From: a virus | Taxonomy: Duplodnaviria > Heunggongvirae > Uroviricota > Caudoviricetes | Length of the DNA: 4,516 nt | IMG/VR virus record: IMGVR_UViG_2660238190_000008 | Direction: 5' to 3' (one strand) | Part shown: positions 1-4,516 of the stretch, one piece after another | Layout: each line of letters starts with the position of its first letter | How positions within the stretch are numbered: the first letter of the stretch is position 1 | The notes under the pieces: model-generated | The model's database searches: none | Told to the model about the DNA's origin: nothing | Seen by the model: only the letters and a program-made list of their open reading frames with translations | Program-made: the position numbers and the translations under genes

Positions 1-288
1 TCAAAATCGGTGGAGCTGCATGACAAAGTCATCGGGCATTATCTGAACATAAAACACTATCAATAAGTTGGAGTCATTACCCCAAATTGGAGTTATAGCC
101 TCCATACCAGCAGTGATATCCCCTTTCTGCTCATCTGGACGAGCAAGTGATACCGTTAATGACTTAATTTCAGCATCTATTTTTTTCTGGCTAACTCCCA
201 CGTTAGGTGTTGAAAAATTCAATGGTGGCACACTAGCGCAACCTGTTAAAGAACCAATAATCATGGCTAATAATATTATCTTCTTCAT
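1..288 (-). CDS. predicted outer-membrane lipoprotein, 95 aa (mature about 78 aa)
   Basis: Complete ORF on the - strand (ATG at 288..286, stop TGA at 3..1). N-terminus MKKIILLAMIIGSLTGC has a basic n-region, hydrophobic core and lipobox L-T-G-C with Cys17; the residue after Cys is Ala, so no Asp inner-membrane retention signal. AAGGT Shine-Dalgarno lies 6 nt upstream of the ATG. No homolog recognised from memory. Confidence 0.6.
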   Translation of the reverse strand: MKKIILLAMIIGSLTGCASVPPLNFSTPNVGVSQKKIDAEIKSLTVSLARPDEQKGDITAGMEAITPIWGNDSNLLIVFYVQIMPDDFVMQLHRF

Positions 289-450
289 AAATTTACCTTA
301 TTGTTATAACCAAAGGAATTATAAAGTAAAAAAGTTCACTATCACTAGCCATTAACGACATCAATTTCAGAGAAACATGGTACTCATTTCCACAAATTTG
401 ACACAAGTCATTTTCATCTACATATTCCATCATACTTGATGCATATGTTA

Positions 451-479
451 TTGAAGCCTCTATCCTATCCGTTCATAAT
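451..479 (+). promoter_or_regulatory. sigma70-like promoter candidate for the small membrane protein gene
   Basis: TTGAAG (451-456), 17-nt spacer, CATAAT (474-479), about 65 nt upstream of ATG 545 in an AT-rich intergenic region. Hexamer match only; no experimental support. Confidence 0.3.
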
Positions 480-544
480 AGCAATAGTTACCCGGGTGAT
501 AGTACCTCTATGATTACTCGTCTTTCTGATTGATTGGATTAAAT

Positions 545-736
545 ATGCGCGCCAAAATTTATCAACTTTCGTTATGGATATTTATTTCGTTTCTAGCGAT
601 CTATGCCTTTATTATCTATAAAGGTTCTTATATTGGAGTAGCATTGCATCAAATTGCTTGGATCATCATTATTGCCTCTGGCTTGATTGCTAGGCTAACT
701 AAACCAAAGCAAAAACCAATTTCGTCCAATAATTAG
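545..736 (+). CDS. small two-helix membrane protein, 63 aa (ORF track extends it to a TTG at 530)
   Basis: ORF MRAKIYQLSLWIFISFLAIYAFIIYKGSYIGVALHQIAWIIIIASGLIARLTKPKQKPISSNN has two hydrophobic segments of about 18 and 13 residues separated by a short loop, with a basic C-terminal tail. First ATG is at 545; the TTG at 530 has no better ribosome-binding site. Sits in the AT-rich island with a promoter-like element upstream. No homolog recognised. Confidence 0.5.
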   Translation: MRAKIYQLSLWIFISFLAIYAFIIYKGSYIGVALHQIAWIIIIASGLIARLTKPKQKPISSNN

Positions 737-772
737 ACATGTATTAAAAAATGATATTTTTATGTACATAGT

Positions 773-949
773 CTATTGAAAATTGCCGCGATAAAATGCC
801 AACACCCGCTTCATCGCGGCACTCTGGCGACACTCCTTGAAAATCAGATTCGTGCTCACCTTTCCTTCCCGTTCTTCCCTGGTAGCGAACCGGTAATACA
901 CCGTTCGCCAGACCTTACCATCAATAACTAAGATTCCTGTCCGCGCCAT
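773..949 (-). CDS. hypothetical small protein, 58 aa, oriented against the pL-direction genes
   Basis: ORF on the - strand below the ORF-track size cutoff: ATG at 949..947, stop TAG at 775..773, translating to MARTGILVIDGKVWRTVYYRFATREEREGKVSTNLIFKECRQSAAMKRVLAFYRGNFQ. Balanced, protein-like composition, but only a weak AGG about 11 nt upstream as ribosome-binding site and several CGG/AGG codons. No homolog recognised. Confidence 0.35.
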   Translation of the reverse strand: MARTGILVIDGKVWRTVYYRFATREEREGKVSTNLIFKECRQSAAMKRVLAFYRGNFQ

Positions 950-1118
950 TTTGGCCGCAGCCTGATTTATGCTGGTTACTGTTGCGCCTGTTAGGCGCGA
1001 TCACTTTCGTCTACTCCGTTACAAAGCGAGGCTGGGTATTTCCCGGCCTTTCTGTTATCCGAAATCCCCTGAAAGCACAGCGGCTGGCTGAGGAGATAAA
1101 TAATAAACGGGGAGCTGT

Positions 1119-1310
1119 ATGCACAAAGCATCTCCCGTTGAGTTAAGAACGAGTATCGAGATGGCACATAGCCTCGCTCAAATTGGAGTCAGGTTTGTGC
1201 CAATACCAGTAGAAACAGACGAAGTATTTCATACGTTAGCCGCATCCCTTTCACAAAAGCTGGAAATGATGGTGGCGAAAGCAGAAGCAGATGAGAGAGA
1301 CCAGGTATGA
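1119..1310 (+). CDS. lambda orf63-like small protein of the pL operon, 63 aa
   Basis: ATG at 1119 with GGAG 5 nt upstream; 192-nt ORF, the same length I recall for lambda orf63 and in the same operon position. Its stop overlaps the next ATG in an ATGA motif (1307-1310). Confidence 0.7.
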   Translation: MHKASPVELRTSIEMAHSLAQIGVRFVPIPVETDEVFHTLAASLSQKLEMMVAKAEADERDQV

Positions 1311-1320
1311 CAACCACTGA

Positions 1321-1602
1321 ATGCATTTTTCTGGCAGCGGGCTTCATATTCTGTGTGCTTATGCTTGCCGACATGGGGCTTGTTCAGTGACACCTCAGCA
1401 GGAAAACGCCCTTCGCAGCATTGCCCGTCAGGCTAATTCTGAAATCAAAAAAGCCAGACAGCAGTTTCCGGATAAAAACGTCGATGACATTTGCCGTAGC
1501 GTACTGAAGAAGCACCACGAAACGGTAACGCTGATGGGATTCACACCGACTCATTTAAGCCTGGCGATCGGCATGTTAAACGGCGTCTTTAAGGAACGGT
1601 GA
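1321..1602 (+). CDS. hypothetical pL-operon protein, 93 aa from ATG 1321 (alternative 71-aa form from GTG 1387)
   Basis: Long ORF in the same orientation as the flanking phage genes. ATG 1321 has no good Shine-Dalgarno; GTG 1387 overlaps the stop of an upstream 27-codon ORF (GTGA) and has GGGG 9 nt upstream, so the true start is uncertain. Confidence 0.5.
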   Translation: MHFSGSGLHILCAYACRHGACSVTPQQENALRSIARQANSEIKKARQQFPDKNVDDICRSVLKKHHETVTLMGFTPTHLSLAIGMLNGVFKER

Positions 1603-1624
1603 GCATGAAAAACAAAATCATCAT

Positions 1625-1646
1625 GGAGCTACAGGCTCCTTTTTTA
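1625..1646 (+). terminator. intrinsic terminator candidate inside the pL operon
   Basis: GGAGC (1625-1629), loop TACAG, GCTCC (1635-1639), followed by six T (1640-1645) then ATTATT. The stem is short at 5 bp, so strength is doubtful; N-type antitermination would be expected to read through. Confidence 0.35.
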
Positions 1647-1700
1647 TTATTCGCATTCACCCTCAAGCGTATTAACCAACAATTCAGGGATTAATGAAAG

Positions 1701-1922
1701 ATGGCAGACATCATTGATTCAGCATCAGAAATCGAAGAATTACAGCGCAATACAGCAATAAAAATGCGCCGCCTGAACCACCAGGCTATATCTGCCACTC
1801 ATTGTTGTGAGTGTGGCGATCCCATAGATGAGCGAAGACGCCTGGCCGTTCAGGGTTGTCGGACTTGTGCAAGTTGCCAGGAAGATCTGGAGCTTATCAG
1901 TAAACAGAGAGGTTCGAAGTGA
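1701..1922 (+). CDS. TraR/DksA-family C4 zinc-finger protein, 73 aa (lambda Orf73-like)
   Basis: 73-aa ORF with C-x2-C ... C-x2-C spacing (HCCECGDP ... CRTCASC) and an N-terminal acidic/helical region, the TraR signature. Same length as F-plasmid TraR and lambda Orf73. Stop overlaps the Ea22 start codon in a GTGA motif. Confidence 0.85.
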   Translation: MADIIDSASEIEELQRNTAIKMRRLNHQAISATHCCECGDPIDERRRLAVQGCRTCASCQEDLELISKQRGSK

Positions 1923-2470
1923 GCGAAATTAACTCTCAGGCACTGCGGGCCAAGGCAGAAAAAGCAACGTGTGGTGAGTGGTCGCTCGAATATGGAGAGA
2001 GCCGATTTGATGGTGATGATGCGCTAATTCATCGTGAAGTTGCTGGATATATTCCTATTTGCAGAATTGAAGGAGCGCATCCAGAAAGCGGTTTCGATGA
2101 AGATTTCCAAATGGAACAGCAGGCCAATGCTGAATTCATCGCCGCAGCCAATCCCGCTACCGTCTTGGCGCTGCTGGATGAGCTGGAAAGAAACCAGCAA
2201 TACATCAAACGCCGCGACCAGGAGAACGAGGAGATTGCGTTAACGGTAGGGAAGTTGCGCGTTGAGCTTGAGGCAGAAAAACAGCGGGCAAAGGATCTGT
2301 TTATGGAAAATGCTCGGCTTAAGTCAGGTATAGCCGGTCTGATACACCTCGGTATTCGATATGCAGATGTTGAGGTCATGAGAATTGCTGGAGATGCCCA
2401 GCTTTCTACCCCATGCACTGACAGCATCATAAACAGCATTGCAACAGGCATTCGCATCAAAGGAGAGTGA
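1919..2470 (+). CDS. ea22: Ea22-family protein, 183 aa, GTG start
   Basis: N-terminus MSEINSQAL and C-terminus GIRIKGE match my recollection of lambda Ea22. Central coiled-coil-like segment (LLDELERNQQYIKRRDQENEEIALTVGKLRVELEAEKQRAKDL). Position between the TraR-like gene and ea8.5 is as in lambda. It is 3 nt longer than I recall for lambda ea22, so it is probably a variant allele. Confidence 0.8.
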   Translation: MSEINSQALRAKAEKATCGEWSLEYGESRFDGDDALIHREVAGYIPICRIEGAHPESGFDEDFQMEQQANAEFIAAANPATVLALLDELERNQQYIKRRDQENEEIALTVGKLRVELEAEKQRAKDLFMENARLKSGIAGLIHLGIRYADVEVMRIAGDAQLSTPCTDSIINSIATGIRIKGE

Positions 2471-2672
2471 TATGAGCAGGAATACGGGTTTGTAAAAGAT
2501 AACGCTTGTGAAAATGCTGAATTTCGCGTCGTCTTCACAGCGATGCCAGAGTCTGTAGTGTCAGATGATGACCGTACTCAAACATCGGGTTGAGTATTAT
2601 CTTACTGTTTCTTTACATAAACATTGCTGATACCGTTTAGCTGAAACGACATACATTGCAAGGAGTTTATAA

Positions 2673-2954
2673 ATGAGTATCAATGAGTTAGAGTCTGAGC
2701 AAAAAGATTGGGCGTTATCAATGTTGTGCAGATCCGGTGTCTTGTCTCCATGCAGACATCACGAAGGTGTTTATGTAGATGAAGGTATAGATATAGAGTC
2801 GGCATACAAATATTCCATGAAGGTTTATAAGTCTAATGAAGACAAATCCCCATTCTGCAATGTGCGAGAAATGACTGATACCGTGCAAAATTATTATCAC
2901 GAGTACGGTGGAAACGATACTTGCCCTCTCTGTACAAAACATATAGATGATTAA
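2673..2954 (+). CDS. ea8.5: Ea8.5, 93 aa, Cys/His-rich small protein
   Basis: AAGGAG Shine-Dalgarno 7 nt upstream of the ATG. 93 aa with Cys and His residues (CRHHEG ... CPLCTKH). Length and spacing to xis are exactly as I recall for lambda ea8.5. Confidence 0.85.
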   Translation: MSINELESEQKDWALSMLCRSGVLSPCRHHEGVYVDEGIDIESAYKYSMKVYKSNEDKSPFCNVREMTDTVQNYYHEYGGNDTCPLCTKHIDD

Positions 2955-2974
2955 ACCCAATATTACATAACAAT

Positions 2975-3030
2975 CCTCGCACTCGCGGGGATTTATTTTA
3001 TCTGAACTCGCTACGGCGGGTTTTGTTTTA
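2975..3030 (+). terminator. two tandem hairpin plus T-run elements (terminator candidates)
   Basis: Hairpin 1: CCTCGC (2975-2980), loop ACTC, GCGGGG (2985-2990), then ATTTATTTTA. Hairpin 2: AACTCGC (3005-3011), loop TACG, GCGGGTT (3016-3022), then TTGTTTTA. Each stem has one G-T wobble. Confidence 0.3.
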
Positions 3031-3042
3031 TGGAGATGATAA

Positions 3043-3210
3043 ATGCACTTCCGAGTCACAGGAGAATGGAATGGAGAGCCATTCAACAGAGTTATCGAAG
3101 CGGAGAACATCAACGACTGCTACGACCACTGGATGATATGGGCGCAGATAGCACATGCAGACGTAACCAATATTCGAATTGAAGAACTGAAAGAACACCA
3201 AGCCGCCTGA
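3043..3210 (+). CDS. hypothetical 55-aa protein between ea8.5 and xis
   Basis: ATG 3043 with GGAG 7 nt upstream, stop TGA 3208-3210, translating to MHFRVTGEWNGEPFNRVIEAENINDCYDHWMIWAQIAHADVTNIRIEELKEHQAA. Below the ORF-track cutoff. Position and length correspond to the small unnamed ORF I recall between ea8.5 and xis in lambda. Confidence 0.6.
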   Translation: MHFRVTGEWNGEPFNRVIEAENINDCYDHWMIWAQIAHADVTNIRIEELKEHQAA

Positions 3211-3223
3211 TGGCGGTTTTTTC
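3200..3223 (+). terminator. intrinsic terminator candidate just upstream of xis
   Basis: CCGCC (3203-3207), loop TGAT, GGCGG (3212-3216), followed by TTTTTT (3217-3222). The hairpin overlaps the stop codon of the 55-aa ORF. Confidence 0.45.
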
Positions 3224-3237
3224 TTGCGTGTAATTGC
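3224..3237 (+). promoter_or_regulatory. CII-type activator site (TTGC-N6-TTGC) of the int promoter pI
   Basis: TTGC (3224-3227), GTGTAA, TTGC (3234-3237), lying 13 to 26 nt upstream of the xis ATG. In lambda the CII-activated pI promoter starts transcription inside xis, so Int is made without Xis. Confidence 0.6.
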
Positions 3238-3249
3238 GGAGACTTTGCG

Positions 3250-3468
3250 ATGTACTTGACACTTCAGGAGTGGAACGCACGCCAGCGACGTCCAAGAAGC
3301 CTTGAAACAGTTCGTCGATGGGTTCGGGAATGCAGGATATTCCCACCTCCGGTTAAGGATGGAAGAGAGTATCTGTTCCACGAATCAGCGGTAAAGGTTG
3401 ACTTAAATCGACCAGTAACAGGTAGCCTTTTGAAGAGGATCAGAAATGGGAAGAAGGCGAAGTCATGA
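3250..3468 (+). CDS. xis: excisionase Xis, 72 aa
   Basis: Protein MYLTLQEWNARQRRPRSLETVRRWVRECRIFPPPVKDGREYLFHESAVKVDLNRPVTGSLLKRIRNGKKAKS matches lambda Xis as I recall it. The 3' end overlaps int by 23 nt, as in lambda. Confidence 0.95.
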   Translation: MYLTLQEWNARQRRPRSLETVRRWVRECRIFPPPVKDGREYLFHESAVKVDLNRPVTGSLLKRIRNGKKAKS

Positions 3469-4516
3469 GCGCCGGGATTTACCCCCTAACCTTTATATAA
3501 GAAACAATGGATATTACTGCTACAGGGACCCAAGGACGGGTAAAGAGTTTGGATTAGGCAGAGACAGGCGAATCGCAATCACTGAAGCTATACAGGCCAA
3601 CATTGAGTTATTTTCAGGACACAAACACAAGCCTCTGACAGCGAGAATCAACAGTGATAATTCCGTTACGTTACATTCATGGCTTGATCGCTACGAAAAA
3701 ATCCTGGCCAGCAGAGGAATCAAGCAGAAGACACTCATAAATTACATGAGCAAAATTAAAGCAATAAGGAGGGGGCTGCCTGATGCTCCACTTGAAGACA
3801 TCACCACAAAAGAAATTGCGGCAATGCTCAATGGATACATAGACGAGGGCAAGGCGGCGTCAGCCAAGTTAATCAGATCAACACTGAGCGATGCATTCCG
3901 AGAGGCAATAGCTGAAGGCCATATAACAACAAACCCTGTCGCTGCCACTCGCGCAGCAAAATCAGAGGTAAGGAGATCAAGACTTACGGCTGACGAATAC
4001 CTGAAAATTTATCTAGCAGCAGAATCATCACCATGTTGGCTCAGACTTGCAATGGAACTGGCTGTTGTTACCGGGCAACGAGTTGGTGATTTATGCGAAA
4101 TGAAGTGGTCTGATATCGTAGATGGATATCTTTATGTCGAGCAAAGCAAAACAGGCGTAAAAATTGCCATCCCAACAGCATTGCATGTTGATGCTCTCGG
4201 AATATCAATGAAGGAAACACTTGATAAATGCAAAGAGATTCTTGGCGGAGAAACCATAATTGCATCTACTCGTCGCGAACCGCTTTCATCCGGCACAGTA
4301 TCAAGGTATTTTATGCGCGCACGAAAAGCATCAGGTCTTTCCTTCGAAGGGGATCCGCCTACCTTTCACGAGTTGCGCAGTTTGTCTGCAAGACTCTATG
4401 AGAAGCAGATAAGCGATAAGTTTGCTCAACATCTTCTCGGGCATAAGTCGGACACCATGGCATCACAGTATCGTGATGACAGAGGCAGGGAGTGGGACAA
4501 AATTGAAATCAAATAA
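3446..4516 (+). CDS. int: tyrosine site-specific integrase Int, 356 aa
   Basis: 356-aa ORF starting MGRRRSHERRDLPPNLYIRNNGYY and ending REWDKIEIK, matching lambda Int from memory. Tyrosine-recombinase catalytic residues are present in the expected contexts (GQRVGDL Arg, HELRSL His-x-x-Arg, LLGHKSD His, SQYRDD Tyr). Stop TAA is the last codon of the window. Confidence 0.97.
   Translation: MGRRRSHERRDLPPNLYIRNNGYYCYRDPRTGKEFGLGRDRRIAITEAIQANIELFSGHKHKPLTARINSDNSVTLHSWLDRYEKILASRGIKQKTLINYMSKIKAIRRGLPDAPLEDITTKEIAAMLNGYIDEGKAASAKLIRSTLSDAFREAIAEGHITTNPVAATRAAKSEVRRSRLTADEYLKIYLAAESSPCWLRLAMELAVVTGQRVGDLCEMKWSDIVDGYLYVEQSKTGVKIAIPTALHVDALGISMKETLDKCKEILGGETIIASTRREPLSSGTVSRYFMRARKASGLSFEGDPPTFHELRSLSARLYEKQISDKFAQHLLGHKSDTMASQYRDDRGREWDKIEIK

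Follow-up and report, generated by a model that had tools for sequence, protein, structure and literature searches.

Is the short open reading frame (ORF) that stands on its own strand beside the remains of ren in a defective lambda-like prophage of Escherichia coli a real gene, and if so, what does its product do for the cell that carries it? We approached these questions for IMG/VR record IMGVR_UViG_2660238190_000008 (Caudoviricetes), whose 4,516-nt stretch, numbered from its first letter, is called the window below; the ORF occupies positions 545 to 736 of the plus strand. A sequence-only reading of this DNA had described a 63-residue protein with two hydrophobic helices and a lysine-rich tail, had placed a promoter-like element in front of it, and had proposed an immunity or exclusion factor or a membrane-depolarizing toxin. 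Judged by its homologues and their substitution patterns, 545-736 is a protein-coding gene under purifying selection. It is very probably a genuine membrane-protein moron, and it belongs to a new and very small orphan family within a well-known kind, the prophage morons that encode small inner-membrane proteins. The role of the protein is much less certain, and we tentatively favor protection of the lysogen against other phages.

The small gene and its relatives

545-736, plus strand: predicted two-helix membrane-protein coding sequence, 63 amino acids (aa), ATG at 545 and TAG at 734-736, MRAKIYQLSLWIFISFLAIYAFIIYKGSYIGVALHQIAWIIIIASGLIARLTKPKQKPISSNN
536-538, plus strand: weak Shine-Dalgarno remnant GGA, 6 nt before the ATG, read from the sequence

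The frame is extended by an ORF finder to a TTG at 530 (68 aa); we took the ATG at 545 as the start because all homologues open with M-[RQ]-[AVT]-K. The opposite strand holds no competing ORF of 30 aa or more. The length of the ORF by itself is only weakly significant, since an ATG-initiated ORF of at least 63 aa appears in 109 of 2000 shuffles of positions 289-772 (~5%). The coding verdict comes from the homologues and from the ratio of nonsynonymous to synonymous substitution rates (dN/dS); a promoter match or ORF length alone proves nothing.

How widely is the gene distributed? The 484-bp region that contains it (289-772) is present at an identity of at least 99% in 280 of 5426 complete E. 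coli genomes, and the exact protein is found on at least 1000 public contigs, always labeled "hypothetical." The most divergent E. coli copy shows five changes, one of them within the ORF (nonsynonymous). Because the E. coli copies are near-invariant, divergent homologues were used for the selection test. A word-indexed search returned near-identical copies only, a full HMMER search of 1.84 billion representatives gave three relatives at 37 to 50% identity, and profile and pattern searches added further ones, with an overall homologue identity of 33 to 50%. Six sequence types can be defined: the E. coli type, two Klebsiella types (P0006 and P0009), an Enterobacter/IMG-VR type of 59 aa (P0010, L038-L045), and one type each at loci L012 (P0007) and L056 (P0008-like). 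All of them share the start motif, a length of 59 to 63 aa, two hydrophobic helices joined by a turn, the core Y-[IL]-G-V-x-L-[HN]-[QE], and a small-xxx-small pair. Searches by tblastn with three family members found the E. coli phage PhiR30_1 alone among 50,697 GenBank phage records and no copy in plasmids.

Substitutions among these relatives are strongly biased toward synonymous sites. Pairs with unsaturated synonymous sites, which are not independent of one another, have dN/dS values of 0.04 to 0.21 (Nei-Gojobori): 0.11 for L006 versus L013 (17 synonymous and 8 nonsynonymous changes), 0.04 for L014 versus L044 (21 and 5), and 0.05 for L038 versus L039. Deeper pairs give 0.1 to 0.3. Within E. 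coli, the ORF is intact in 29 of 29 related loci, including defective prophages in which a neighboring gene has been cut by IS1 or IS3.

Hydropathy analysis places residues 5-49 in a single hydrophobic stretch, with a charge of +2 at the N-terminal end, and the last 15 residues carry four positive charges (R50, K53, K55, and K57) and no negative ones. AlphaFold2, run on an eight-sequence alignment, models helices at residues 2-26 and 30-52 with a mean predicted local distance difference test score of 74, joined by a predicted three-residue tight turn, G27-S28-Y29. The conserved core is Y29-I-G-V-x-L-H-Q36 in this protein, and the small-xxx-small pair, S45/A49, lies in helix 2. The product is thus predicted to be a helical hairpin of roughly 7 kDa that sits in the inner membrane, its two ends cytoplasmic (N-in/C-in, by the positive-inside rule). 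Conservation is highest at the turn, which would face the periplasm, and over the outer half of helix 2, polar H/N-Q/E pair included. The sequence features described earlier, among them the two hydrophobic helices, the lysine-rich tail, and the 63-aa length, are all there.

Does the protein belong to a known family? Comparison of the window protein and five homologues with Pfam, NCBIfam, PHROGs, and PADLOC gave nothing above threshold, and the window protein had no Pfam match at an E value of ≤1. Searches of BFVD with Foldseek and of PDB with profiles returned generic single-helix noise only (e.g., PsbI). Literature searches turned up no mention of PhiR30_1 or of the peptide, and broader ones yielded comparators only. 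The sequence-only reading was right to leave the class uncertain. Two faint candidates were rejected. A match to phrog_17225 (E value of 0.096) was judged compositional and was not reproduced across the family. SdpI/YfhL (PF13630) was matched by three homologues at 12.8 to 14.2 bits (E values of 0.05 to 0.14) against a threshold of 28.2, and not by the window protein; these matches are most likely compositional as well.

The current RefSeq pipeline (PGAP) places no gene at 545-736 in any record examined, whereas the GenBank record of PhiR30_1 annotates it. Whatever the function, this is a conserved small membrane-protein gene, evidently under purifying selection, that goes unannotated by that pipeline. 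A specialist would not be surprised that such a gene exists; its value is that of a clean, testable candidate that is common in clinical E. coli and omitted by RefSeq. In several records the locus-tag numbering skips one tag at this place (e.g., EDM51_RS10450, FS611_RS04095, and COG37_RS18540), which suggests that an earlier gene call was withdrawn.

Cargo at the ren-ninB junction

Where does the gene sit, and by what signals could it be expressed? Read leftward, the window corresponds to the left arm of a lambda-like E. coli prophage, which is defective and occupies the lambda attachment site beside ybhC. The prophage is defective because a deletion, which joined a ren fragment to the DUF1317/DUF1382 region (about 950-1118), took P, O, cII, cro, cI, and the red/recombination genes. 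The intact order survives in PhiR30_1 and in ST410-type strains, where cro-cII-O-P-ren is followed by the small ORF on the opposite strand, two lipoprotein genes (a 186-aa YajG-like and a 150-aa glycine-zipper lipoprotein), a 33-aa ORF, and ninB onward. The prophage setting assumed by the sequence-only reading is thereby confirmed. The features next to it are the following.

398-426, plus strand: best sigma-70-like promoter candidate, TTGACA-17-CATATT, 10/12, 5' untranslated region (UTR) of ~110 nt
451-479, plus strand: promoter-like element of the sequence-only reading, TTGAAG (451-456)-17-CATAAT (474-479), 9/12, 5' UTR of ~59 nt
734-775, no strand assigned: AT-rich imperfect palindrome of 17 pairs, about -11.3 to -11.8 kcal/mol depending on the stretch folded, z -2.2 to -2.6
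773-949, minus strand: ren, 3' part, 58 codons in frame
82-288, minus strand: gene of the 186-aa YajG-like lipoprotein, ATG at 288, cut after codon 69 by IS1

The position of the gene is conserved beyond E. coli. Gene tables read for PhiR30_1 and for the prophage loci L006-L011 and L013-L015 show the small gene as the sole plus-strand gene from the replication genes (O/P or DnaC-like) to nin/Q; it is therefore antisense to the pR operon. Klebsiella and Enterobacter prophages always have it divergent from a gene for DNA polymerase III theta (HOT-like, PF06440), at a distance of ~65 to 70 bp, and L038-L044 share the upstream start of the theta gene and a downstream hairpin. The stretches that show this divergent pairing are as follows.

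L006, 5672-5929: theta-gene-linked small-gene locus
L013, 5673-5930: theta-gene-linked small-gene locus
L014, 743-991: theta-gene-linked small-gene locus
L015, 4302-4550: theta-gene-linked small-gene locus

In L014 and L015, the theta gene is followed by a gene for a 211-aa protein with subthreshold DUF4145/HEPN matches, and PADLOC and Pfam scans of the Klebsiella and Enterobacter neighbors gave nothing beyond these hints.

What occupies the corresponding place in lambda? The ren-ninB spacer of lambda is 73 bp long (L060, lambda 40200-41200, positions about 372-444) and holds a GGCCTGC/GCAGGCC hairpin followed by TTTTTATTT, which we take to be the terminator tR2. Homology to lambda ren stops ~25 nt short of the ren stop codon of the window. 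Compared with the 73 bp of lambda, PhiR30_1 and the window carry ~1.7 kb of cargo in this slot, and PhiR5_1 carries a different, unrelated cargo there, also on the opposite strand. Comparison of these sequences indicates that lambdoid phages use the ren-ninB (tR2) junction as a cargo slot. The extra DNA also deviates in base composition, with G+C fractions of 0.32 (289-544), 0.34 (545-736), and 0.17 (737-772) against 0.50 in ren and 0.46 in 950-4516.

A moron is added DNA of deviant composition, with its own promoter and terminator, that is expressed from the repressed prophage (PMC3594210). DNA in excess of what related phages have at this map position and a deviant composition were both found here. 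For the promoter and, in E. coli, the terminator, we infer candidates from the sequence. A promoter of its own would be needed if the gene is expressed at all, because its orientation opposes pR. The element TTGAAG-17-CATAAT of the sequence-only reading is indeed present, but it neither exceeds chance nor is the best in the region, where the site at 398-426 scores higher; three sigma-70-like sites occur in 1.2 kb, against 3.5 ± 2.0 expected from shuffles. Strain N1420 carries a natural variant of the 451-479 element, CACAAT instead of CATAAT. Upstream of the Klebsiella versions there are only ~70 bp, in which TATAAT is perfect and the -35 hexamer poor. Folding of the E. coli 5' UTR was not better than that of shuffles (z +1.0 and +1.4), no minus-strand promoter-like site was found within 433-800, and an Rfam scan of positions 1-1200 gave just subthreshold noise from eukaryotic long noncoding RNAs and microRNAs.

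The palindrome downstream spans the stop of the small gene (TAG, 734-736) to that of the convergent ren fragment (CTA, 773-775), and it is a candidate two-way terminator where lambda has the terminator hairpin of its ren-ninB spacer. A stem-loop starts 3 to 12 nt past the stop codon of every prophage homologue, and the sequences of these stem-loops are unrelated. Those of Klebsiella are G+C rich and have the look of classical intrinsic terminators (L006 and L013; also L038). Stems of the Enterobacter type are built on GGCCAC/GTGGCC, with compensatory changes among L038, L039, and L044, and on the reverse strand of L038 the hairpin is followed by TTTTTT.

Is the small gene a partner of the lipoprotein gene next to it? 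The divergent arrangement noted earlier is real (288 on the minus strand versus 545 on the plus strand), and the intergenic region is 289-544. Regulation shared between the two genes, which had also been proposed, is not upheld: the lipoprotein genes exist as a chromosomal operon without the small ORF, the small gene occurs in prophages without the lipoprotein genes, and in PhiR30_1 the lipoprotein genes are oriented with the pR operon. The genes of the 186-aa and 150-aa lipoproteins make up an operon of two that is widespread in chromosomes (more than 500 clusters, 60 to 87% identity), those of Klebsiella oxytoca, Bordetella, Xanthomonas, Stenotrophomonas, and others, and that appears to have been captured by the phage. 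Neighbor searches were negative in both directions, with no small membrane ORF upstream of the lipoprotein pair in the K. oxytoca and Bordetella homologues and no lipoprotein gene beside the small-gene homologues of Klebsiella and Enterobacter prophages; a conserved functional module of the small gene and the lipoproteins was thus rejected. In strain F5505-C1 the lipoprotein gene is cut by IS3 and the small gene is intact, and in BS74R-D the lipoprotein gene itself is intact. Representative loci of the pair are given here.

L001, 11198-12207: lipoprotein-pair locus
L049, 3001-4013: lipoprotein-pair locus
L050, 3001-4013: lipoprotein-pair locus

In databases this operon is often misnamed "UDP-N-acetylglucosamine acyltransferase." The E. 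coli cassette of two lipoprotein genes, spacer, and small gene (the equivalent of 82-772 of the window plus ~1 kb to the left) is 99 to 100% identical in 29 loci (L001-L005, L016-L037, L046, and L047). Its flanks vary, with 94 to 100% identity in ninB and 90 to 100% in ren. A near-identical cassette between differing flanks indicates recent spread by recombination among lambdoid backbones.

Function of the encoded protein

What could such a protein do for a lysogen? Because the gene runs against the lytic operon, appears to have its own terminator, and remains intact in decayed prophages, cargo expressed in the lysogen is the simplest reading, and we infer lysogen expression on these grounds. 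As for the function, we give a probability of about 0.35 to superinfection exclusion at the inner membrane, in which genome entry would be blocked; the proposal is speculative and made by analogy, and it is favored because blocking genome entry is the best-documented job of such prophage proteins. In the repressed prophage, a promoter belonging to the small gene would drive its transcription, and the product would sit in the inner membrane and shield the lysogen by keeping out the genomes of other phages; after induction, head-on transcription from pR would oppose the small gene. The protein might act on incoming tape-measure or channel proteins, in the manner of HK97 gp15 and T4 Imm, or might occupy an inner-membrane entry factor. 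The conserved turn, the outer part of helix 2, and the polar H/N-Q/E pair suggest a surface for binding, not a protein that breaks membranes nonspecifically.

The scheme has precedents. The HK97 moron gp15, whose YebO relatives are chromosomal, encodes a small exclusion protein of the inner membrane (PMC3594210); made while the prophage is repressed, this protein stops genome injection (PMC3594210, PMC10883804). P22 SieA is an injection blocker in the inner membrane (PMC10883804), and DicB shows inner-membrane entry factors to be targets (PMC6832061). T4 Imm is a 9.3-kDa membrane protein that binds the tape-measure protein and thereby blocks genome translocation (bioRxiv 10.64898/2026.03.06.709160). 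The closest parallel is gp15, likewise a small inner-membrane protein encoded as stand-alone cargo in a lambdoid prophage and likewise with chromosomal, nonphage relatives. The two genes differ in place and sequence: gp15 belongs to the tail operon, whereas the small gene is found at the ren/nin junction and runs antisense to the early operon, and the sequences are unrelated. The small gene may work like a gp15-type moron, and at the least it is built like one. Imm resembles the window protein in being a small hydrophobic phage membrane protein, but it has 83 to 94 aa, four helices, and a periplasmic N terminus (bioRxiv 10.64898/2026.03.06.709160), against 63 aa, two helices, and predicted cytoplasmic ends here; moreover, it comes from a virulent phage and is made during infection.

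Several results weigh against exclusion, or against the anatomy on which it is built. The promoter matches are no better than chance, and the E. coli stem-loop at 734-775 is AT rich, lacks a clear U-tract, and fails a scan for G+C-rich terminators. The family is very small, with about six sequence types. No known exclusion system was recognized in it: neither the window protein nor its homologues match the Pfam Imm family, and BFVD gave no fold match to Imm; for gp15/YebO there was no Pfam or NCBIfam match, and none of the three HMMER relatives is YebO-like; SieA was matched neither in sequence nor in fold; and none of the 5027 models of PADLOC-DB v2 matched the small protein or either lipoprotein at an E value of ≤1. 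Finally, since two members, L012 and L056, lie at apparently nonphage chromosomal sites, the ancestral role need not concern phages. The classes named by the sequence-only reading, an exclusion or immunity factor and a membrane toxin, still lead as candidates; membership in the Imm, gp15/YebO, holin, or type I toxin families could not be demonstrated.

The full form of the exclusion proposal is possible but doubtful. It would make the gene the founder of a new exclusion family in lambdoid prophages of E. coli, Klebsiella, and Enterobacter, with a Y-I-G-V-x-L-H-Q turn that binds a tape-measure or channel protein or an entry factor, recruited from a chromosomal family as gp15 was from YebO, and missed by RefSeq. 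If the protein is an exclusion or defense factor, it would offer a minimal tool of ~60 aa for studying the passage of siphophage DNA across the inner membrane and would bear on the phage susceptibility of clinical E. coli, as many of the 280 positive genomes among 5426 are from human clinical isolates; the relatives in Klebsiella pneumoniae prophages would extend this relevance. Should it prove to be neutral cargo, or to modulate a host protein, it would be a routine catalogue entry among small prophage proteins.

Another question is whether the partner of the protein is a host protein. The product could be an accessory or regulatory subunit of an inner-membrane protein such as a transporter, a sensor kinase, or a component of the envelope stress response, and confer a fitness trait unrelated to phages. 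AcrZ, MgrB, SgrT, and MgtS are small membrane proteins of E. coli that serve as models for such a role. The two chromosomal members fit this idea: that of L012 (2182-2364) is divergent from a STAS-MlaE-type ABC permease and ATPase, and that of L056 (1856-2047) adjoins pspF and a gene for a PphA-like Ser/Thr phosphatase. In helix 2, polar residues and the conserved small-xxx-small pair are of a kind typical for helix-helix binding. We nevertheless consider a host modulator unlikely, for most known copies are in prophages, in one fixed slot, the neighborhoods of L012 and L056 share nothing, and no partner can be named.

Could the protein instead perturb the membrane, as a depolarizing toxin of the holin or type I kind that acts as an abortive-infection effector or a prophage addiction module? 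Class II holins and pinholins, such as S21 of phage 21, are proteins of ~60 to 70 aa from lambdoid phages with two transmembrane helices, N-in/C-in topology, and a basic C-terminal tail, and the predicted build of the small protein is the same in size, helix number, topology, and charged tail. Unlike a holin gene, the small gene lies on the opposite strand and outside the lysis cassette; the prophages already carry holin genes, and their lysis cassettes, with holin, lysozyme, and spanin, are elsewhere and complete. It has a single Met start codon without a dual-start motif, there is no toxin or holin match in Pfam and no holin match in PHROGs, and the tight, conserved turn, together with the polar H/N-Q/E pair, points to a specific interaction instead of general damage to the membrane. 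Type I toxins (Hok, TisB, Ldr, Ibs, ShoB, and DinQ) are small hydrophobic peptides encoded on mobile elements in an antisense arrangement. The small gene shares all three traits and lies wholly antisense to the pR transcript, a possible natural antisense regulator. It departs from them in encoding two helices rather than one and in its unstructured 5' UTR, and neither a dedicated antisense promoter-like site nor an Rfam match was found, a negative that comes from sequence and cannot prove the absence of an antisense small RNA without transcript data. The ~70 bp of upstream sequence in Klebsiella leaves no room for a type I-style control region, and at least 280 genomes keep the small gene intact, with no antitoxin gene apparent as a partner. 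We therefore hold a toxin to be quite unlikely.

A further idea is that the transcript is the main product, in which case a promoter would fire against ren-P-O head-on, or would meet pR read-through where tR2 used to be, and expression of nin/Q would be damped. The oop and paQ antisense RNAs of lambda are models for this, the anti-pR orientation is conserved at the replication/nin junction, and the stem-loop, to judge from the reverse-strand hairpin and TTTTTT of L038, is possibly bidirectional. An RNA role is highly improbable all the same: strong selection on the amino acid sequence, with saturated synonymous sites, means that the protein is what is conserved, the DNA outside the ORF is not conserved between E. 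coli and Klebsiella, and Rfam has no match. Lastly, a functionless chance ORF in an AT-rich spacer would agree with the weak Shine-Dalgarno sequence, with the ~5% of shuffles that reach this length, and with the silence of PGAP in the sampled E. coli genomes, but homologues at 33 to 50% identity with conserved length, start, and motifs and dN/dS of 0.04 to 0.3 reduce its probability nearly to nil.

The surrounding prophage arm

The rest of the window consists of an insertion sequence end and the remaining genes of the prophage arm, and positions 82-4516 are 100% identical to E. coli BS74R-D.

1-81: terminal 81 bp of IS1 including the last transposase codons, 100% identical to thousands of IS1 copies
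3250-3468, plus strand: xis
3446-4516, plus strand: lambda-type int

Further plus-strand genes are Ea8.5-, orf55-, and Ea22-like, TraR/DksA-like, and DUF1382/DUF1317 (orf63/orf60a-like). Other strains show an alternative deletion endpoint, at which ren 1-125 of 222 is joined to exo. The Ea22-like gene (1919-2470) is a pseudogene with a missing C terminus according to the matching RefSeq records, which is a further mark of decay in this arm. A hydrophobic ORF of 27 codons, MTTTECIFLAAGFIFCVLMLADMGLVQ, lies at 1307-1390 on the plus strand; its ATG overlaps the stop of the DUF1382 gene (ATGA) and its own stop (GTGA) runs into the GTG of the annotated gene that follows. This arrangement looks like translational coupling, and the ORF may encode a second unannotated tiny membrane protein.

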